A DNA stretch of 63,908 nt, counting the filler, from Neolecta irregularis DAH-3 (taxonomy: Eukaryota): NCBI GenBank assembly GCA_001929475.1. It is 5 parts of 5 records of this genome, joined end to end, with 100 filler letters (N's around TTAATTAATTAA, not from the genome) between each part and the next. Parts side by side here need not be neighbours in the genome. Positions count along the whole stretch, not along the records: positions 21,946 to 53,279 come from LXFE01002362.1; 4 more parts are not named here. One strand, 5' to 3'. This document shows, piece after piece, positions 21,846 to 62,724 of this stretch (position 1 is its first letter; every line of letters begins with the position of its first letter). Made by a program: the position numbers and the translations under genes. The notes beneath the pieces were generated by a model. That model made no database searches and had not been told where the DNA came from. It was given only the letters and a program-made list of their open reading frames with translations.

Positions 21846-21945
21846 NNNNNNNNNNNNNNNNNNNNNNNNNNNNNNNNNNNNNNNNNNNNTTAATTAATTA
21901 ANNNNNNNNNNNNNNNNNNNNNNNNNNNNNNNNNNNNNNNNNNNN
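21846..21945. other. Assembly gap with artificial six-frame-stop linker
   Basis: N run, TTAATTAATTAA, N run. Confidence 0.98.
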
Positions 21946-23672: not shown

Positions 23673-26307
23673 ATGTTTTCCGATCTCCGCTGCTTACATC
23701 CCGCTCCAACTTCACCGCTGCCTTCTCTACCAAACTTCTCTTCTTCCTTAGTACCTCGGAAAACTTCTCTCGGGTCGATGACTCAAGAGGTACGCTCAAA
23801 GAATATTTATTTGCATCAGGAGATCGCGCCAGTATCGTTCACAGTATCATCATCTACACTCAGCGAAACAAATAGGTCCTTTTTGTCGATTGCAGACGAT
23901 GAAGATTCAGGGGAAGAATTAAACGAAGAAACAGATGTCAACTTCAACCCTCGGTTGCATTCATCCCCACAGTCTTCCTTGGTGCAATCCGAAGACCCGG
24001 CATTTGCAAGGAACCTGATTGATCTAACCGATACGGTGCGCCCAACATGCAGCGATCTTCCCATCACCCTGGTAAGTTCAGAAGAATCAAGTAACAAAGA
24101 CGTTCTCCCGAATATCCCTGAGGCAGAATCTGATCTAATCTTACCTGTCGGATCCCCGGAAATACCTCCAGCCGAGTTTCCACCTGCACCTCAAAATCTT
24201 CCCTTGCATCGTTTGAAAGGCAATACCCCAAATTTGAATCGCATTCCGTCGATGATATCCGTTGCTGAGTCTGAACTATCGCCCTCGATTGACCCGCCTG
24301 TCATCACAGTAGTTCCGTTTCCCATTCCTATCACAGGTTTAAATCGTTCATCCCATCCAAATTGGCCCGGTCGACCTAGGATTATTCATTTCGGACAGTC
24401 AGGTGCTTCAGAATCATTCGACGAGGAGTCTGCACATACCGACGCCATGAAGCAGACAATACCTAGTGACAATTCATTTAGCCTCAGGACATCCTCAAAG
24501 CCGTGTTCTAACTCTATCTCATCGTCAGTGACAATGCCACCTACCTCTCCATCAAATGCGATGTCAAGCCAAACCCAAACTCGTGTTGATCCATGCATAC
24601 CGAAAGAGTGGGACAAACCGCCCCGCAAAAGCTCACTCTCTCAAAACCTCCGATCTGTCGCTTCAGAGTCGACTTTTAAACCAGCAGGTAAACCCCATGG
24701 CCAGGTGGTTAGTCCTCTGAGCTCACCCCGTCTGAACCGCCTGAATGTAGAGGCGAGATTCTTTGAAAATCAGGTATGCCCTTGAAATGAATGAGTTTTC
24801 ACCAGGAGAATTATAGTACTTCGACAAGTAAATCGTCAATGGATTCTCCTGTTTCAGAAAGCATCACAGCCTCTAGCCCGGTAGGTTTTGCAACTGTTTC
24901 TATATGTACTGAGCAAAAAGAGCCACGAATCGATAGCCATGGTATCAAAGCTTTCTTTTGAATCGTCATTATCAACTCCCAGTATTGAACCTGGAGATCT
25001 CCTTTGGAATGCGAGCCCTGTGGCTTCCAGAAATCAACCCCGTACTTCGATCTATTATTTCGTCTCTGATTATCCCAGGACGCTTAGCATCTCAAGAGTT
25101 TCGTCTTTCAAAGTTGACAGTCTCGAAAGAGACCAAGGTTGAAAATCCCAAAATAAAATTCTGGAGGAGGAAAAAGCATACTGCCGAATTTCCCCCAATG
25201 CCAAGTGTCGCAGAGTTAAATACCCACCCACCACGTCCCCCTTCGCCTTTTGAATCAACTCCCTTCTCGACAAATACTTCCGTGCCGGTAGAAAGTGGGA
25301 CACAGTCATCAAGAAGCAACCCACCGTCTGAATCAACTGATATTAATAAGCCCATTCTATTACCCAGTCAGTCTAATTATGATCCTCCTTATTCTAATAC
25401 CAACGCTCTGAAAGAAGTGATAAATCATTTCAAATTCGTTCAGTTATCACCTGAAGAAATGCTCTGGTTGACAAAAGAAACAATTAGTCGATATTTGATC
25501 AAGAACGAGGGAATAATCAAAGATACTCTTGACAGTTTACATTTCACTCTCACTTACCGAAAGCAAGAGCAACTCGCCATCCTTCGTGAAAAGAAATTCG
25601 AATCAATGGTATACTTTGTTTACTCAGACATTAATACAAAGTGCTCTGCAGGTTCAATTTTCATCCACGGCTTCGATAAACTACATCGTCTAATACTTTA
25701 CATTTATGTCATTAAATTATTCAGTATAAAAGACCGGTTTTGCTTACTGATTTGGTATCTCGAACGATTATGCGAACTTTCGGCGAGGAACTTTTGCGTC
25801 ATAGTGGACTATCGTGAATGCAATGGAACAAAAGAGACCTCTAATCTCAATGATTCGAAAGAATTCATTGCGAATTTATGCGCGCATTTTCCGGAAAGAC
25901 TAGGTGCTTTGTTTGTTTTTCAGGGTTGATATTCATTCTATAAATTAACTGATTACCCAGCGCCGTTCAAAGTTCGAGCCTTTTTTAAAGTCGTCGCAAC
26001 AGGAATGTCTCAGTTAACGAGAAGGAAAATTCATACTAGTAATTCTTCGTTACTCGAATTCATCGATTCAACTATGCTGCTCTCTTCTTTCGGTGGGTCC
26101 AACACGTTTGAATATTCTCATTCTCGCTACTGGTCAGAGTTTATTCGCGTGATCAGTTCCCGGCGAAGAAGACGACTGACTGGTTGGGAACGATTGGGAA
26201 GGGGTATTGGTATTTCTGACGTCGACTGTATTGAATTTGGAATTGACAGGGCTCGGCTTGATGATGATGAGAATTCGCAGCCTTCAGCTCCGACGTCTTT
26301 GCTTTAA
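23673..26307 (+). CDS. CRAL-TRIO (Sec14/Pdr16-like) protein with a very long Ser/Pro-rich N-terminus
   Basis: WLTKETISRYL, IHGFDKLHRLILY, LCAHFPERLG, FGGSNTFEYSHSRYW. Preceded by a long low-complexity coding region. Confidence 0.75.
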
Positions 26308-26978
26308 TGTACGAATATCTCACTATATCTATATCCTTTGGTTGATTGAGGATTTTCATAACTTGGGAATATTATTTATTGATCTTGTTTGGAAGTCAGA
26401 ATGACAATCCGACTTTAAGCTTCAGATATCCGTTATACTCGGATGAACCAAGTCTCTGCGACTTACTAACAATGTAAGCCTTAACTAGTGATCTACTAAT
26501 ATATCGTTATGGATGACAACTGGGCAATCCAGAGATTACAACATCAAGAAAAATATTGAGCGCGCGTTTGGTGGGCACCAAATTTCATGAAATTTGGCAA
26601 TTTGTCAAATTCAAATTTTAAGCCCGGTTTGGTACCCACTTTCTTGGAATAAATTTTGTGGAGTCTTCCCAATTTCTTCAAAAAAGAAAAGTCCTCACTT
26701 TTTTTTCTGGTTTCCCTCATCATATAAGGTATATATACCAAGGTTTGTTCTTAATTGACATTCCATTTTGCTCTACTCATTTTCGTTGGATGGATTGTTG
26801 GTAAAAGGGTTGCTGAAATATTGGTGGTGTGTTGGATGGGAATATTATAAAAAATAATTTCATAAATTGTATTTTTATGTGGTGTGTTGTAGATAGATAT
26901 CTATCTAAAAACAAAAGCATCAAAAACCTGAATTGCAATCTAAAATTCCGAATTAGCAAATAAAGAAGCCAAAGTAAA

Positions 26979-27761
26979 CTATTGCATTCTCCCATATCCC
27001 CCACGATAACTATCCATGTCTTTGATATTACAATCTGGACTCCAATCTAAACTTTTCTCGCGTTCTTTGAACTGGCGACTGGGGCGAAGCTTAAGTTTGG
27101 TAAATATAGTGAAAAAAATGAATATAGAAACAATGGCACCTCCTGGGCGATTAGCAGATGAGAAGGGACACCAAAATGTACCGACGCCAATAACAGCGAT
27201 GATTGGAGTCTTTGAATTGACATCTCCAGATTTCCCATTGGCTTCTAGCGATGGGATTATGGGGGCAGAGGCTGGAATGCCCGTTGGCAAAGGGGCATAC
27301 TCCTCAGAAACGTCTTGTGATGAAGACGGCGTAGGCTGTGAAGACTGCACAGTTACCCCGCTTTCACCATGCGCAGCCTTCTCCGGCGAATTATCCATCG
27401 AAGCAGTGACAACATGGCCAGCGCGTCCTCCGGTTTCCGCCGATTCCAGTCCAGGAGTTGATGGGATACTAGATTCTGGAGTATGTGAAGAAGCTGACGA
27501 AGTTATATGGGCAAGGGCTGATGTAATTGTATGGGTAGAAACGGACTGCTCTGTCGTCGGCACCACTTCAGGGTCAGGAGAGAACGACATATGGGATTCG
27601 GAATTGGTTGCCGGATCGGATGCAACTGTAGTCTTGACGGCTGATGAGGTAGATATGGTGGAATTGACAATGCTATCGCCCGGGGAACGAGGCTCCAGGG
27701 GTATCAACGACGGTAATGCATTAACGACCCAAAAAACAGAAAGCGCACGAAATATGCGCAT
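26979..27761 (-). CDS. Single-pass membrane protein: signal peptide, Ser/Thr-rich ectodomain, transmembrane (TM) helix, short basic tail
   Basis: MRIFRALSVFWVVNALP, an S/T-rich stretch, and IIAVIGV..GAIVSIFIFFTIF followed by KLKLRPSRQFKER. Confidence 0.8.
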   Translation of the reverse strand: MRIFRALSVFWVVNALPSLIPLEPRSPGDSIVNSTISTSSAVKTTVASDPATNSESHMSFSPDPEVVPTTEQSVSTHTITSALAHITSSASSHTPESSIPSTPGLESAETGGRAGHVVTASMDNSPEKAAHGESGVTVQSSQPTPSSSQDVSEEYAPLPTGIPASAPIIPSLEANGKSGDVNSKTPIIAVIGVGTFWCPFSSANRPGGAIVSIFIFFTIFTKLKLRPSRQFKEREKSLDWSPDCNIKDMDSYRGGYGRMQ

Positions 27762-28247
27762 AGCTACACAAAAACACGGAAAAGCAGCGAACGACGGACA
27801 AAAAGGAGCGTATTATCCTAAAGAATGACTGGTGCGAGAGGCAGAGGAAGGACGGTGGTGCACGTGCGCCAACGTCTACCATGTGTGGCACACAAGAATA
27901 TCACACTTGGCTGTCTCATCCTTGCAACAAAATGAACATTTGGCCAGCCCTGTATAGAACCACGCTATGCTATTCATCCCACCCTTATCCTTCCCCATTC
28001 AGTAATATCGCTGAATGCGCTTGTTTGTCGTATATGGTCTGTGAATGAGAAGTATGATCAGAGGAATCCAAGGACATGTTTCCATAGGCTACATGTTGAC
28101 CAAAAGGAGAATATGATCTGAAATTCTTGGATTTCTCATTTCCTCTACAAACACAATTCAGACAAATGGACTACAGCCTGCCAGGAATTTGTTGGTCATC
28201 TGAAAATAAATTAGCAAGCTAAGGCCGCTATGTCAGCAACTTAGACT

Positions 28248-29593
28248 ATGGGACTTCACTTTCTCTCTCTCTCGCAGTACTACGTTTCCATCCTGTTTTC
28301 ACGCGCACGACCAAAATTCTCCAGCAACCCTTGCCACGGGTCGAGAGACTCCTCCCGATCCAGCCTGTCTACTCTGCGACCGGAGCCAATCAAACCCCGG
28401 ACAACTCCTTTCGCGAAACCCGAAGGGAGATCGCAAATCGCGGAGAAGGCCTTGACAAGAGCAGAAATTGATGCCACTGCCAGGATCATAGAACACTTTC
28501 AAAAAGAAGACCTGATAGACGACGAGAAGTTCTGGTTAACCAAAGAGTGCGTATTGAGGTATTATCACGCATCAAAGACAGACATCACCCAAGCTATCTC
28601 GCGCATCAGTAAAACTCTTGCCTGGAGAAAAGAGGTTGGAATCTATTCGATTACGGCCGAAGAAATTTGCACTAAAGTATCTTTTCGTCTTCTTTCGATG
28701 ATATCTGAACTCAGGCCCAAACCGGGAAGCAGGTCCTTCTAGGGTTTGACTACGCAAGGCGTCCCGTTTTATACCTTTATCCTGGTCGTGAAAATACATC
28801 ATTCTCACCTAGGCAATCGAAATATTTCGTATGGAGTCTCGAACGATGCATCGAGCTCATGCCACTGGGAGTCGATACCCTGGTCATATGTATCAATTAC
28901 AAATCTACGACTTCGATTACTTCTTCCTCCTTCACCCAAAGCAGAGAAGTCATTCATATATTACAAAATCACTACGTTGAGCGACTGGGAAAGGGAATCA
29001 TAATAAATAGTACAGCCTCATTCTATTTCTCTCTAAATCATCTAGTGCCATGGTTCGTGACTGCTTTCTTTAAACTTATTTGCCCTTTTCTTGACCCGAA
29101 AATTCGTCAAAGTTTGATATTCAATGAAAACCTGAGAAATCACATCCCATCCCATCAACTGGACAGCGAGTTCGATGGCGGTCTTCACTTTGATTATGTT
29201 CACACGGAATATTGGCCCTGCCTCTTGAATATCACACAGCTACGATCTGATGGAATGAGACGACGTTGGAGAGAATACGGCGCATGTGTGGGAATAAGTG
29301 AATGGGATTTAAAAGACGGGTTAGAAGAAGAAGTCGATTTGAAGTTGGAGAATGAAGTACATGATATCTTTCTTTTCGAGCAAGCTACCAAGGACAGCGA
29401 ACAGACGGAGAGACCAGGAACCAAATACCAGGATTCCATCCATCAGGAAGCTGTCGAAACTGCTATTCCAACTATCGTAAACAAGGGGCATGTATGTGTT
29501 GTTACGGAAGAGACAGAAAATCGAGACAGTAAAGTTCTGCAAAGTGCGATGAGCGATACCGCCAGTTTCGTCACTGCTGCGGAGAAGCATTGA
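28248..29593 (+). CDS. CRAL-TRIO phosphatidylinositol transfer protein (Pdr16/Pdr17-like)
   Basis: WLTKECVLRYYHASK...TLAWRKE, LYLYPGRENT, ILQNHYVERLGKG, PFLDPKIR and FDGGLHFDYVHTEYWP. Confidence 0.88.
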
Positions 29594-45537: not shown

Positions 45538-46330
45538 ATGAATCCTCCCTCGCAGTCTACTCCAATAAAAGCTAGATCAGCACGTTCAGTGCCTCAGAAC
45601 ACCCCTAACTCTTCCGTTCCAAGAAGTGGCGTGCTTCCTCAGCAAGGCGTATTAGACTTTGAAGCATTAAATCAAGCGGCAAGGAGGGCGGAAGTTGACG
45701 TTATGGCTCGCGATATAGAATTTATGACTTGTAAGTCGGAATGAAAGGAAGGGACTTCCTGCTATGTCTATTTGATGTGGAGTGCGCATTTTTGTTTCGG
45801 GGATTCTTTTCATCTGGTGTTTTGGTGGGAACGGGGTAAAGACTTTTCATGTCTCAAATCTGCTAGAGCAGTTATTTCAAAAGCGATCAGATCGGAGGTT
45901 AATCGCCTGTGCATTATATTGTATATGCAAGTCGATATTAGTCGTTATGATTCTAAATAAGCCTCACATTTATTCACACGACGTTCCCTTTTTCGGGTTG
46001 TTTATGTTATTTTGGCTTGCTTTCTGAATTCCCATTCTGCGTTCGCATGGCCTTCGACTCTAGGTCGGTTGACCCGCTGACCGATTCAGTAATATGACCG
46101 CGGTCCACATAGTGACACCATTGTGGGGTTCTATTCCCTTGAAAAGACTTAGACCATATAGCTCTCGCGTAATTTAGCTTAACCTTGGATTCTTTGGAAC
46201 AGGACCGGTCGTCTTCGGTCTTCCTGTCAGCTTTGTAGAAGAGAGCGCATATATATTATTCTCTTCTACTTGGTAGGTGTTCAACATTTGGTATAAAGAC
46301 ATCACCAACACGAACGGCTGTAAGTTGGGA
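45538..46330 (+). CDS. Hypothetical small membrane protein (multi-exon; 3' end uncertain)
   Basis: First exon MNPPSQSTP... ends at a canonical GTAAGT donor. Downstream segments are hydrophobic. Confidence 0.4.
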
Positions 46331-46566
46331 CTAGATTAAAACTTAATATGATATAATACTAAGAACACTGTTGACGAGTTTCCATCGTTGAGTACCACAC
46401 TATGTCCCCAAAAGAACGAGATCTCTCGTCAAGACTTTATTGATGTCCGAATCGAGTGAATGCATATCCTTCAAATCAGGAATAAGATGATAAACTATCA
46501 TCCATCCGAAGGTACGTGCCACTGAACAAGTTGATTGAATAAGAATTTTTATATAAAAAAGAGAAG

Positions 46567-49500
46567 TTATGAGACATTATCACTAGACTGTGATTTGTAA
46601 AAAATGGACGATTGGTCTTCGATCATTGTGGCAGCAAAGCCGTCTTCAACAACCTTGCCATCTTTCAGTACAATGACTCTATCATATTCCTGAAATTATC
46701 AGATAGAAAATAACATAGTGAAGACTTACCAAAGCCGTACCCACGCTTGAAGTGACTGCAACAACTGTCAAGTCCGGAATTTTCCGTAAATATTGAATAA
46801 TTTGATGTTCGCTGTTATAATTAGGCCTCATATTTTTGACAGGGAGTATACGTAGCGAGATCAACGCTCGACGTGGTGTTATCTAAAACGAGAAGCTTGG
46901 ATCTCCGAAGAAGAGCTCGAGACAGCGACAGAATTTGGCGTTGACCTAACAGCGTTAGCCTCCCACGCATCCTGAGGCTTTGTTCATACCGAGAGAAAAA
47001 TTGCTTCCATTCTGAAGAACTACCTCATCAAGAATGCTTCGGCCCAGCAGTATATCCGCCTTTCGGGGCAAAGACTTGCTGAATCCCACATTCTGAAGCA
47101 ACTGGAGTAATATACTATCATCAAATATCTTCGAATGATCTAAATTTGACCGAACAGTACCTGTGCTGTTAGATTACTGCTTAGCCCATATCATACCTTC
47201 AAAGAGCATCGGATCCGAGGACACAAAGCAGACACGGAACCTTAACTCTCCCAGGTTCACATTTTCCACATCAACCCCGTCAACCTTAATACTTCCGCGG
47301 GTGCGCTTTTTAAAACGCATTAAATTTTCCAGAAGCTCTGAGCCCCCAGGGCCGATAATAGCAACATGATCTCCACTCGCTATATGTATAGAAACATCTG
47401 AGAGAATTTCTTTCTCGGCATCCTGCCGAAATGAAAGTTCTTGAATGGTAACAGATCCACCTACGGGCCAATCCGCAGTGACACGACGAAAAACATGAGG
47501 CTTTGGATCTTGTTCGCTTTCATTAAACAGCTGCAATCTTTGGAAACTAGAAAGATTAACACAAGAACACTATAAAGATTTTTTACACCTTTTAGCATGA
47601 GCAATTGTCGTGCTCAAGCTACCTAAAAATCCAATGATGATCCGACTCAATCCCATTGTATTGTAGATAATAAATGCGATAAGCCCAACTGGCAAAGATC
47701 GAGGATGAATAGCAAGTAGCGCAGCAACAAATGCAATCAAACTTGTCGTTAAGTCAAGGCGTGCAGAGATCCACCGATCAATATCTAAATGTGCTTTCTC
47801 TACACGATTGTGATTGTCGAATCTTTTAAAACTGTCTTCGAGGAATTGATCTTCAGCTCGGAAAGCGCGAATTGTAGCGACCCCTACAGAAGTAGCTACT
47901 GGAATAGGTGCCTTTAACGTAGTCTCGATATGAACGAGGGAGGCTTGAGTTCGCAAATACCTTATGTGTAAGAAAATGAATAAAGAGGAGAGCAAACATA
48001 TAAGTAAAACACCATGAAGGCGCAAGAAGAAGAATCATGGGAAAGACGATTAGTGGCATAAATACTGGGATGGCAAAAGTAACAACTATCAAACTGAAAA
48101 AATAAGCAATCGCGGTATATGTTGCTACTGGAAGGGCAAAGTCCAAAACACTAATTGAATTAGACTCATCTATTCCTTGGAGACTCACGAGATATCTTGA
48201 GGAAATGTCATGACCTCGCTCGAATTTACCGATGAGAAAAGAATTAACCTTGTGAATTTTCCATGTAATTTTTGGGAAAAACCAAAGGTAGAATTGAATA
48301 ACAGGCAAATGGCGAGAGAACTGAATACCACATTTGAAGCAAATAGACATCCAAGAAGAGCAAAGCTTGAATTAAATGTGAGTTCTGGAAGAGGCATATA
48401 AATGCGGTGTCCGTGATGTCTGCGAATGGCAGGGTTATTGGCAAAGACGCAGAGCCCGTATATTGTAAAAAGAGCAGCCAATTGAGCCAAGAGGATCAAA
48501 AGGATAATCAAGAAAATGCGAAAACGTGAGCCAATGTTGAAAAAGTATGTCCAGACTGTATATGAGATACTCTGCTCAAGAAAAAGGGATCAAACCTCTC
48601 GTTCGTTTATACTGTTCCTTGGTACCCAGTTCTTGCAACTTCAAGGATGAAATAGTGTTGCTCTCATCCAAATCAATTACACTCTCAGAATCCCCTTCTT
48701 CCAAACCATCCTGACCCTCAATTGAGAAGTGAGACTTCTCTGAATTGCTTCCAACCGTATGAGCTCTTATGGGAACAATATTGTCTGTCGAGGTATCCTC
48801 TGAGTTCTCAATCTCAAAGGCAGTTTGATCTTCATCTCGAATTATTCTCCCTTCATAAAGTTCGATCACTTTATGAGCGTATTTCTCAATGTGCGTTGGG
48901 CGATTAGTTGCCAATATAACTGTGCGTCCCATGAGAATACTCCCGGATAAACAGTTCCGGACAATGGTTCGGGCCAGATCGTCCTCTAGAGAAAAGATAT
49001 CGTCAATAAGCACGACTTGGCTGAATGAGAAGACCGCCCTAGCCAACGCGATCCTGATTCTCATTGACATGTTGACATCGTTCGCATTGGTTTCATCTCC
49101 ATTTTCCAGAGTTTCGACTTGATCAAGAAGAGCACAGGCACGGAGAACCTTTGCATATCGACTTTCGTTATAGATTTCTCCAAAAAGTATATTATCTCGA
49201 ATAGAAGAGTCTTGCAACCATGGATCCTGAGAGACAAAACTGACGCCATCTATTCCGGGAAGAAAGTAAGATCCAGAAAGAAGGGTTGTCTCTCCGAGAA
49301 GACTCCATAACATAGTCGACTTACCACTCGCTACTGGTCTAGTGAATTAGTTAGAGAATGAGGACGAGATACTTGCCCAGTAATAAGATTCAAACCGCCC
49401 TTTACAAATTGAACATTAAGGTCTTGCAGAAGAAAGTTCCCTTCATTTCCATTCGAAAATGTAGCATTCCGGAAACAAGGCGGTTGGTCCGCTTTCTCAA

Positions 49501-51532
49501 ATAGATCACCTTCTCGAAGGGACTGCTGACTGGCTTCGTCGAGACCATGTGATGAATTGATGAAATCGAGAATTCTACCCAATGAGATATAACAAGACCA
49601 TGTTGAAGATATTGAATCGAAAACAAATAATACTAATGTCAGTTACATTTAGAAGAAGCAATATACGAGTATTGCGCAGGTAGATGATCAATGCTAAGGA
49701 ACTAAACGCAATTGATACTCGAATGTGCGTTCTTTGAACTTGATGGGCATAGCTAAACATTGCCAATAACGCAACCCATGGCATCGCATTTCGGAAAATC
49801 GTGCACAATATAAATATCTTATTCCTATGCCAAAGGAAGCGTTCTTCGGCCTCTCGAACTGTCTTTACTTGGTCCATCGCCGAGGATTCTGAAGCAGTGA
49901 TTTTAGTGAAGCCGAGGTTTTGAATAAGTTTGGTAACAAGATCGATGCGGTTGATATTAACTTTACCCGGAGACATGTATCGGAAAAGAAATATCGTTGG
50001 AAGAAGAAGACCAACAAAGAGTATTGAAGAACCAATAAATGCAGCATTGAAGAGCAGTTTGTGGAGAAAGTAGATTGAAATTCCAATTTGGATTGGAGAG
50101 CTTATGGAGAGCTACGTGTTAGTATTAAACTCCTGCTTTGTGTTACGAGTAAAAGGTCTCGACAGTCAATGAGATTATTGATATCTTCATCAACAATAGC
50201 TAAGATAAGAACGGCGTTTGGAGAATGCCAAATACCTTGTTTTTCTTGTAAATCTTTGTTGGTCTGGTTCGAGATATTACTCCGCAAAATCTTTTCGTAA
50301 ACTTGAACAGACATAACAGTACGCAAGCGCGAAGAAAATCGATTTGTAAAGTAATAATACGTTCGGCTGCTATTAGCAAATGTCACATTTGTGTCGAAAT
50401 ACCTGAATATTCCATTAATGATTGGTCCTGCAAGAATTCCAGTGGCCCACAGGTAAGGGTTGGAGTGTGCGCCTCTTGGATTTTCAAGGTAAGCTAACAA
50501 ATAAGTAGATTACGCGCAACGAAAATATGATACCGAGTAGTCGATTCAAGGAAATAATAGAAACGAAACCACTGACAGAACAACCCAGCGCAAAGATGAA
50601 AGCAGCGGCAATAGTATCCTTTGTTCGTATGACGAAACACTTCAACAAGGTGTTTTGTGTCCTATCTTCACGAATTCGAAGATACATTTGCGCAGTATGT
50701 TCGTCATCTTGTGTAGGAGGAATCTCGCTCAAATCTGGGGTTCTCTTCCAACCTTTCCATAAAAAGGTTTCAATGTACCAAATACTTATAAACCGAGAGA
50801 AGGGATTGGAAAATTGTTCCGGATGAGGACGAACGATTGAATAAGTATGGCTTGGGGTCTACTTGTTAGCCACGGTACATAATGTAGAAATACCCAAATT
50901 CGAGGTGTTATCAATGGGATAAAATTAACTAAACAAACTAGCGAAAATTGAATCCACATCAAGATGCTCCCGGAGTGATGCCTGTGAATCTGAAAGAGAG
51001 GATATATATCCCTAAAGAGCATGTTGAACAGAGGCATTGTACCAAGTATTATGGCATGTCGATAAGCTTGTCGTCGATGTGGGTTTGGTATTAATGTCGC
51101 GGAATGAAGAAGAATGAGATATCCCTTGAAATATCAGTAGTTTTCGAGACATCAGGATACCCAAAATGCAGTTTCAATGGACCGTGCAAGAATATGTCTT
51201 GCAGGTTGCCAGCTCATTGCAGCATGCCATGTACTTATACCGTACAATACCAGAATGGCATTAGTCAATAGTATCGATAATAATAGTCCAAGCCCGCGCA
51301 AAATTTCTGGTTGTTCTCCCGTCTTGTGGTAGGTCAGAAATGTGTATGCGAAGATCAATATCGAGAAAGTCATTCCGAGAAGTGGCAATATGATGTTTGA
51401 GGCCCTGCAGCGGGTTAGGGCTGATTCCAACACATGGGGGAGCAATACCATACTACGTGTCCCCAGTGCACGCCTATCATGACTGGTGGAGGGAGCGGGT
51501 ACCGACCGAAGCGGTTTTGATGGACTGAGCAT
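46567..51532 (-). CDS. ABCC/MRP-family (Ybt1/Bpt1-like) transporter with degenerate nucleotide-binding motifs
   Basis: TMD-NBD-TMD-NBD layout. Motifs: GPVASGKST, QDPWLQDSSIRDNILFG, GVATIRAF, RWISARLD, WPVGGSVTIQELS and GSNFSLGQRQILSLSRALLRRSK. Confidence 0.9.
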
Positions 51533-52138
51533 TATTGCCGGATGCGGTGAGGGTGGTTGGTAGTGGTGGTCAAGATGAACAGGCAGTGCAAAATACGATG
51601 AAGGCATTGCAGCCCCGCCGTCTGGACGGGTGCAATGCGGGTATGCGACGATAGAACCGACAGGGATATGTAGAGTACGCACGGGTCGCATGCAACCTCT
51701 CGGTGCCATCGAGGCAGTGAAACTGCTGCAGCTTATGGCACACGGCGGCGGCGGCGGCAGATGAAACGGGCCGGCCGCTTCCGGGCCAGGGACGGGAGCG
51801 GCGGTGGCTGAGCAAATGTAATTTCGGCGCTGGAAGTAGGCAAGCCACCTGTGGCGCAAAGAGGCAGCTGGAGCCAGAGGCCAGCGCAGCAGCGCGGACG
51901 TGCGCAGCGGACGCCGCAGCGCAGGCGGGGCCGGCCGGGTTCTGCAGCGACTGGCTGTTTGGAGCGACGCGCGGTGTTGCGCCGCCAGGGGAGCGCGAGA
52001 GCGCCAGCACCGCCCGGGTTCGAGCCAGGCCGGCACAGTTCTGGGCAGCATTAATTACGCAGCTGATTACGCGGCCTATAAAGCCCGCCCTATTTCCCTC
52101 GCCCCTCCAACACCCTCCACCCCCCCCTCCCACCCGGC

Positions 52139-52622
52139 ATGTCTTCCACCATGGACCTGACCATCAAACTCGACAAGCCGGCAATATCCTTTCCCCTCAC
52201 CGTCCCTCTCTCCACCACCGTAGACAACCTGAAGCTCCAGATCTCCCTCAACATGCCCTCAAAGGCTCCTCCCCAGTCGATACGCATCATCCATTCCGGC
52301 ATTCTGCTCAAGGAGCCTGACCTCGTCTTGGCCGCTATCGGTATTGCTGACGGAGCCACCGTGTGCGCCTCGCAGAAAAAGAAATGCCATGCCGCGTCGT
52401 GTACCAACAGCCCGGCAATCATCGGCCAGTGTACTTACTGCGGCGGAAAATACTGCAATAAGCACCGTCTGCTGGAGGACCATGCTTGTGCCGGTCTACA
52501 AGACGTATCTTGCTGCTTATGCTTTTTATGCCAACATGATCTAGTGTAAACGTGAATCGCATAATCGTAACGCTGCCAAACTAAACTCGGAGTCGTGTAT
52601 CGCCTCCAAGATTGCTAGTTGA
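52139..52622 (+). CDS. Ubiquitin-like domain plus AN1-type zinc-finger protein (Tmc1/ZFAND-like)
   Basis: UBL (TVDNLK..I......IRIIHSGILL) and AN1 (CHAASC...IGQCTYCGGKYCNKHRLLEDHAC), then CKRESHNRNAAKL. Confidence 0.88.
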
Positions 52623-53279: not shown

Positions 53280-53379
53280 NNNNNNNNNNNNNNNNNNNNN
53301 NNNNNNNNNNNNNNNNNNNNNNNTTAATTAATTAANNNNNNNNNNNNNNNNNNNNNNNNNNNNNNNNNNNNNNNNNNNN
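53280..53379. other. Assembly gap with artificial linker
   Basis: N-TTAATTAATTAA-N. Confidence 0.98.
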
Positions 53380-61256: not shown

Positions 61257-61356
61257 NNNNNNNNNNNNNNNNNNNNNNNNNNNNNNNNNNNNNNNNNNNN
61301 TTAATTAATTAANNNNNNNNNNNNNNNNNNNNNNNNNNNNNNNNNNNNNNNNNNNN
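61257..61356. other. Assembly gap with artificial linker
   Basis: N-TTAATTAATTAA-N. Confidence 0.98.
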
Positions 61357-62624: not shown

Positions 62625-62724
62625 NNNNNNNNNNNNNNNNNNNNNNNNNNNNNNNNNNNNNNNNNNNNTTAATTAATTAANNNNNNNNNNNNNNNNNNNN
62701 NNNNNNNNNNNNNNNNNNNNNNNN
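62625..62724. other. Assembly gap with artificial linker
   Basis: N-TTAATTAATTAA-N. Confidence 0.98.

Follow-up and report, generated by a model that had tools for sequence, protein, structure and literature searches.

A fungal ABCC protein from Neolecta irregularis with an eroded hydrolytic ATP site, proposed to act as a non-pumping nucleotide binder

The DNA analyzed here (the window) is a stretch of 63,908 nucleotides from Neolecta irregularis DAH-3 (GenBank assembly GCA_001929475.1), and in the part that comes from LXFE01002362.1 its minus strand carries a gene for an ATP-binding cassette protein of the ABCC subfamily (Table 1). Three-frame translation of positions 46300-51800, with short introns that contain branch-like motifs, yields a spliced model with no internal stops across 1420 codons. 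The encoded protein has the single-chain order TMD0-L0-TMD1-NBD1-TMD2-NBD2 that the subfamily requires, where TMD and NBD denote transmembrane and nucleotide-binding domains. Its start codon is uncertain and lies either at 51480, followed by an intron at 51448-51405 as in our model, or at 51532 without this first intron, as in a sequence-only reading of the locus. We refer to the NBD1 Walker motifs together with the NBD2 signature as site 1, and to the NBD2 Walker motifs together with the NBD1 signature as site 2. The sequence-only reading took site 2 to be the hydrolytic site of ABCC proteins, as is stated for ABCC1 and ABCC7 in the accessible part of PMC7756269. According to the same text, only site 2 hydrolyzes ATP at the transport rate in ABCC1 and CFTR, whereas site 1 binds ATP stably and serves as a hub and possible sensor. 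In the Neolecta protein, site 2 has lost every feature that we scored.

All six motifs quoted in the sequence-only reading are present on the minus strand within one spliceable frame. Alignment with homologues shows that the NBD2 Walker A has suffered an in-frame deletion of three residues and contains no lysine, that the SGGQ of the NBD1 signature is lost through an in-frame deletion of four residues, that the glutamate of the NBD2 Walker B is replaced by asparagine, and that AHR in the NBD2 H-loop has become TSS. Changes beyond those reported earlier affect the NBD2 Q-loop (Q to S) and A-loop (Y to Q), as well as the NBD1 X-loop and the NBD1 D-loop, where SALD has become SLED with an additional one-residue gap. 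Six features of the hydrolytic site were scored by profile alignment (the NBD1 signature and, in NBD2, the A-loop, Walker A Lys, Q-loop Gln, Walker B Glu, and H-loop His) in a comparison set of 263 proteins of 1000-2000 aa out of 278, with P0001, the NCBI entry for the Neolecta protein, left out. The Neolecta protein keeps 0/6. Among the 263 homologues, 240 keep 6/6, 19 keep 5/6, and four keep 4/6, which is the minimum, with alignment gaps explaining three of these four lowest scores. The competent consensus site that characterizes an active ABCC/MRP pump is therefore absent. Because hydrolysis in ABCC proteins resides in site 2, which is lost here, the Neolecta protein should be unable to run an ATP-driven pump cycle. 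It could be argued instead that the two sites have swapped roles and that slow residual hydrolysis at site 1 drives transport, given that the site 1 Walker A, Q-loop, and partner signature are retained and that slow hydrolysis persists at sites where Asp stands in for Glu (PMC7756269, accessible part). However, the NBD1 Walker B remains DD with no Glu regained, the H-loop residue is Asn, and the same text indicates that such hydrolysis is unable to sustain transport, which makes a slow pump the least probable of the alternatives that we considered.

The sequence-only reading described the other site as kept. This description holds for the NBD1 Walker A and the NBD2 signature, but not for the NBD1 A-loop, where an Asn replaces the Trp found in 198 of the 263 homologues, or for the NBD1 H-loop, where the change from His to Asn is shared with 15 of them. 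The NBD2 signature retains each of its six conserved residues, although the NBD1 signature is deleted. The form of site 1 typical of ABCC proteins, with Asp for Glu in the NBD1 Walker B and a non-canonical NBD2 signature, is present as DD and FSLGQ. NBD1 is also shortened between the Walker A and the Q-loop, with 31 residues from Lys609 to Gln640, the same as in NBD1 of P0123 and fewer than the 42 in NBD2 of P0123; a short NBD1 stretch in this region is described for ABCC proteins in the available portion of PMC10305233.

The NBD1 exon matches P0001 ("ATP-binding cassette transporter abc4, partial", Neolecta irregularis) at 100%, but compared with the 1420-residue model P0001 lacks the N-terminus, a 13-residue stretch with the NBD1 Walker A, and 11 residues of transmembrane helix 16 (TM16). 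We regard the 13- and 11-residue stretches as coding because both match family sequence. Keeping the NBD1 Walker A in frame requires a GC-AG intron, which is the sole option among 23 in-frame splices that gives ungapped family sequence, and its donor is of the strong kind usually seen in introns of this class. A competing GT donor (49372), 4 nt downstream of the GC donor, would shift the frame, while an alternative GT-AG splice from 49372 to 49320 would excise the NBD1 P-loop in frame. The GC-AG intron with its nearby GT donor is the likely reason that the public gene model drops the NBD1 Walker A. The choice between the GC and GT donors might also act as an on/off control. A suspected frameshift at the junction of the linker and TMD2 was ruled out, as a 40-nt GT-AG intron restores the frame.

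The losses are concentrated on site 2. Retention was counted at columns that reach at least 85% conservation among 51 fungal ABCCs, with domain alignments of 50-51 sequences obtained by dropping 11 of 63 tree rows that were non-fungal, Ycf1-like, or long-branched. With site classes that follow textbook motifs but were defined after the sequence had been seen, the Neolecta protein keeps 7/30 positions of the hydrolytic site, 16/17 of site 1, and 51/64 elsewhere in the NBDs. When deletions are counted once and the A-loop and H-loop losses of site 1 are added, the difference between site 2 (8/24) and site 1 (16/19) persists (p = 0.0016), and site 2 also differs from the other NBD positions (8/24 vs 51/64; p = 8e-5).

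A pseudogene, or an artefact of assembly or splicing, might account for such losses, and the gene is known from one species and one record, lies on a long branch, and requires one non-GT donor. In this coding sequence, about five nonsense changes should arise for every 100 missense changes. Drift erasing 16/24 site 2 units would be expected to introduce about 78 stops into a free frame, or 49 if half were lost, compared with the zero observed. Every alignment gap that falls within an exon preserves the frame (9/9), the Walker A and signature deletions among them, and the distance of these gaps from exon edges ranges from 6 to 116 codons, although two of the nine may represent one event; a 12-residue gap in the first intracellular coupling loop (ICL1) was left out of this count, as it coincides with an in-frame 36-nt intron. 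The gene model thus contains neither the stops nor the frameshifts of a pseudogene, and the nine in-frame gaps together with the open frame argue against one. The uniform introns of 34-44 nt with branch-like motifs, the site-specific pattern of loss, and the single copy in the assembly likewise speak against a pseudogene or artefact, and we consider this explanation highly improbable. No RNA record was found for the gene, which counts neither for nor against its expression. Neutral decay does not account for site-concentrated loss in an open frame, in agreement with the earlier statement that the changes are not random decay. Repurposing appears to be a better reading of the gene than decay, and it is very probable, judging from the sequence, that the gene is maintained by selection and encodes a protein that does not pump.

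The gene has no close relative in the data that we searched. In a full-library HMMER search of 1191 residues of P0001 against 1.84 billion representatives, in which any relative sharing more than 50% identity would have been concealed within the cluster of the query itself, the best-scoring non-self match was S. japonicus abc1 (P0121) at 30% identity and no non-self match exceeded 34%. The named top matches were S. japonicus abc1, S. pombe Abc1, and proteins from Protomyces, Calocera, Discina, and Taphrina. Trees of 63 and 24 rows, which did not include S. pombe Abc4, group the Neolecta gene with S. pombe Abc1 and the Protomyces, Taphrina, Discina, and Calocera proteins (SH-aLRT 99). By this placement, the gene is a member of the fission-yeast Abc1/Abc4 clade, group IV of the fungal ABC-C proteins, although its position inside the clade is unsure because its branch is long. 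At 1.55 changes per site, that branch compares with a median of 0.53 and with 0.58 and 0.63 for the other two ABCC loci of the assembly, whose ordinary branches indicate that the acceleration is gene-specific. Searches of the organism's own genome found three ABCC-like loci, namely the gene under study, C1482, and C2590. In this assembly of 4542 contigs, which may be incomplete, the gene has one DNA copy, which is also the sole Abc1-clade copy found, and a second intact copy was ruled out within the same limits. An origin by recent duplication of the Ybt1-like paralogue (C1482) followed by decay was rejected, with the forced grouping giving p-AU 2.75e-07. When the NBD1 exon was compared with longer proteins, the best non-self match was canonical and 46% identical, with no close orthologue; among proteins of near length it had only two matches (39-42%). 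The NBD2 exon returned only itself, 119 pattern matches in metagenome contigs gave no confirmed case, and the ESM Atlas gave generic ABCC clusters only. The species is reported as not yet cultured in the accessible part of PMC5309816. Two fungal ABCCs from another clade, P0201 (Syncephalis fuscata) and P0169 (Ambispora gerdemannii), have changed NBD1 signatures (ITKSL and LTDDQ) and DN in the NBD1 Walker B, with P0201 also altered in its NBD2 signature and Q-loop, and are possible partial parallels.

Table 1 Features of the ABCC gene and its surroundings, with positions along the window.
Feature	Position	Strand	Description
Whole ABCC gene	46567..51480	-	18 exons, 17 introns of 34-44 nt; coding sequence 4263 nt, 1420 aa
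N-terminal membrane domain, TMD0-like, aa 1-165	50906..51480	-	from hydropathy
L0/lasso motif, aa 166-240	50646..50905	-	kept (alignment)
TMD1	49535..50645	-	all six hydrophobic helices present; ICL1 without its G-x-x-x-N motif; 4-aa gap preceding ICL2
NBD1	48822..49492	-	Walker A, Q-loop Gln, Walker B DD kept; A-loop, H-loop, signature, X-loop, D-loop changed
NBD1 Walker A GPVASGKST	49378-49314	-	translation; spans GC-AG intron
GC-AG intron, G/GCAAGT...TAG	49339..49376	-	required for in-frame NBD1 Walker A
NBD1 signature region NDVNMSMRIRIALAR	from about 49082	-	translation
NBD1 X-loop and signature, trans half of hydrolytic site	49053..49091	-	degenerate, 4-aa deletion (alignment)
TMD2	47540..48626	-	six helices kept; ICL3 motif lost, 6+1-aa gaps; TM17 Arg to Gly
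NBD2	46600..47482	-	signature NFSLGQRQ and D-loop Asp kept; hydrolytic motifs altered (alignment)
NBD2 Walker A IIGPGGSELL	47359-47330	-	translation
NBD2 Walker A remnant IIGPGGSEL	47333..47359	-	3-residue turn between strand and helix in predicted model
NBD2 signature NFSLGQRQ, trans half of site 1	46935..47002	-	split by intron 46989-46946; fully kept
NBD2 Walker B LVLDNTTSSVD	about 46892-46860	-	translation
NBD2 H-loop VAVTSS	about 46762-46745	-	translation
Ubiquitin-like plus AN1 zinc-finger gene	52139-52620	+	PF00240, PF01428
Short spliced open reading frame	45538-45750	+	about 65 aa; no Pfam match
Two CRAL-TRIO (Sec14-like) coding regions	24937-29590	+	same contig as ABCC gene
Open frame of 644 codons	57198-59129	-	no Pfam match
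Contig joins	21846-21945, 53280-53379, 61257-61356, 62625-62724		paired N-runs

The membrane domains retain their core helices, while the coupling loops ICL1 and ICL3 have decayed. The TMD0-like region is also retained; it has no Pfam match and shows about 20% identity to group IV N-termini, the same as these show among themselves. With hydropathy windows set from homologues, all 12 core helices remain hydrophobic, ranking slightly above the homologues (41 of 45 and 45 of 47). Besides its helices, TMD2 retains the G-x-x-TIRAF motif of ICL4 and the RW-x-x-x-R-x-D motif of TM16, and 9/17 of its near-invariant residues are kept. The Gly in TM17 occupies a position that is Arg or Lys in 44/51 homologues, and we take this Arg to be the counterpart of a substrate-binding residue of MRP1. 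ICL3 would dock on NBD2. A structure model built from P0001, and hence without the NBD1 Walker A or the 11 residues of TM16, has the ABCC fold, with mean pLDDT 80, pTM 0.73, and a TM-score of up to 0.84 to solved ABCCs; it is uninformative on site 1 because of the missing Walker A.

The intact and slightly more hydrophobic helices, together with ICL4 and the charged motif of TM16, would suit a nucleotide-gated passive facilitator, channel, or lipid scramblase, in which binding and release of ATP at site 1 flips the TMDs without hydrolysis and permits downhill movement of solutes or lipids. A D-loop mutant of TAP1 works in this way without hydrolysis (PMC4242082, available part), the NBD1 D-loop is altered in the Neolecta protein too, and gating persists in CFTR when the NBD1 signature is broken or NBD2 is absent, according to the available text of PMC5881446. 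However, the ICL1 and ICL3 coupling loops are degraded, the TM17 Arg is lost, and the helices have gained none of the charged or polar residues expected of an ion pore. In addition, nucleotide binding persists at the sites of the TAP mutant, but site 2 of the Neolecta protein has no phosphate loop. We consider a facilitator unlikely, although it is the leading alternative.

Our preferred reading, to which we assign a probability of roughly 45%, is that the gene encodes a hydrolysis-dead ABCC protein that binds nucleotide at one site and acts as a regulator or scaffold in the vacuolar or endoplasmic reticulum (ER) membrane. For S. pombe, the accessible part of PMC2848647 places Abc4 in the vacuole and describes Abc1 in ER-like membranes. 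An ancestral transporter of the Abc1/Abc4 clade would have become a hydrolysis-dead membrane protein under continued selection. Nucleotide would still bind between NBD1 and the NBD2 signature, probably more loosely and with ready exchange because the A-loop Trp is lost; mutation of the site 1 A-loop is described as giving faster nucleotide exchange and shorter residence (PMC7756269, accessible part). The bound nucleotide could clamp the NBDs on one side and in this way set the conformation of the protein, which would no longer carry the ancestral substrate and would instead use TMD0 and the lasso to act on a partner. Because ICL1, ICL3, and the cavity arginine have decayed, this setting of shape seems more likely than movement of a substrate. 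The broader proposal of a natural fungal pseudo-transporter, in which site 1 alone would serve as an ATP-sensitive switch that regulates a partner or gates passive flux across the vacuolar or ER membrane, is in our judgment evenly balanced.

Several observations weigh against a regulator or scaffold that senses nucleotide at site 1. No partner was found for it, and the lasso is no better preserved than other domains (25%, vs 36% between subclades). Retention of the NBD1 Walker A relies on a predicted GC donor, the A-loop Trp of site 1 is gone, and fold prediction guided by alignment is apt to return the family fold. No orthologue with the same pattern of loss was found in the searches with the NBD1 and NBD2 exons, in the library search with 1191 aa, or in metagenomes. 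Retention of site 1 does not differ significantly from the NBD background (p = 0.28), and a paired comparison of like-for-like ligand contacts is borderline (7/9 kept at site 1 vs 2/9 at site 2; p = 0.057). Over the whole protein 87/128 near-invariant columns are kept, and relaxation therefore extends beyond site 2. The background comparison, the loss of the A-loop, and the protein-wide erosion would all fit a purely structural relic, a protein that is made and selected for membrane folding, binds no nucleotide to a meaningful extent, and appears to keep site 1 only along with the NBD core; the GT-AG splice that removes the P-loop in frame, and an NCBI model without the P-loop, would fit it as well. 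Yet equivalent ligand contacts have drifted at site 2 and not at site 1, and the NBD2 signature is preserved in a protein whose NBD1 signature is deleted, so that we consider a relic distinctly unlikely. The pseudo-transporter proposed in the sequence-only reading is accordingly supported in part, by the concentration of loss on one site and the open frame, and weakened by the two site 1 statistics and the losses in the TMDs.

The gene for the ubiquitin-like and AN1 zinc-finger protein is arranged head-to-head with the ABCC gene, from which it is separated by about 600 bp of GC-rich DNA, and the linkage may be due to chance. Its domain pair resembles that of yeast Cuz1/Tmc1, which have been linked to arsenite stress. 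The short spliced reading frame is convergent with the ABCC gene, and the two CRAL-TRIO coding regions lie near each other. The N-run at 53280 contains the TTAATTAATTAA spacer, and genes beyond the contig joins are not necessarily true neighbors.

Our literature search, which left most subscription journals outside its coverage, found no report that describes this gene or any natural ABCC protein whose consensus site is wholly dead, and the available part of PMC2848647 states that, as of 2010, fungal ABC-C proteins had no known channel or regulator role. The sequence-only reading had suggested comparison with Ybt1 and Ycf1, but the tree placement makes S. pombe Abc1/Abc4 the proper reference. 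Schizosaccharomyces Abc1/Abc4 (group IV of Kovalchuk and Driessen, PMC2848647) share clade, domain order, and lasso with the Neolecta protein. Aligned members of the Abc1 clade keep the motifs of the hydrolytic site, whereas the Neolecta protein does not, and its identity to them is 26-28%, compared with 37-43% for five pairs among those members. Two members of the subfamily in the same assembly, L008 and L054, have ordinary branches, and the motifs of L008 are canonical; their tree neighbors suggest that L008 is Ybt1-like and L054 probably Ycf1-like. A tree test rejected L008 as the sister of the Neolecta gene.

The sulfonylurea receptors SUR1 and SUR2 (ABCC8/9) are non-pumping ABCC regulators with TMD0 and a lasso, and are among the top fold matches to the Neolecta model, although this rank carries little weight because MRP2, MRP4, and MRP1 are only narrowly behind. 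SUR structures have been solved with Mg-ATP/ADP. The SUR-like protein P0004 keeps the site 2 motifs, unlike the Neolecta protein, in which the SUR-type retention of site 2 is not seen, and the tree gives no phylogenetic link between the two. Kir6, the partner of SUR, is not known from fungi. TAP1 D674A and the site 2 mutants of CFTR (G551D and delta-NBD2) function without hydrolysis at the consensus site, with TAP1 D674A described as a bidirectional nucleotide-gated facilitator in the accessible text of PMC4242082. However, these alleles were engineered or are associated with disease and carry single changes, whereas in Neolecta a whole site has eroded naturally and the coupling loops have changed too. 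At most, the Neolecta protein would resemble SUR and the site 2-dead forms of CFTR and TAP in its mode of action, and it has no specific relationship to them by descent. The available part of PMC7756269 treats the retention of a non-hydrolytic ATP site in ABCC proteins as an unsolved problem, and the Neolecta protein bears on it because only that site survives here, making the protein a natural experiment on a degenerate site acting alone. If site 1 does serve as the sole switch, the Neolecta protein would be an independent and more extreme parallel to SUR and CFTR.

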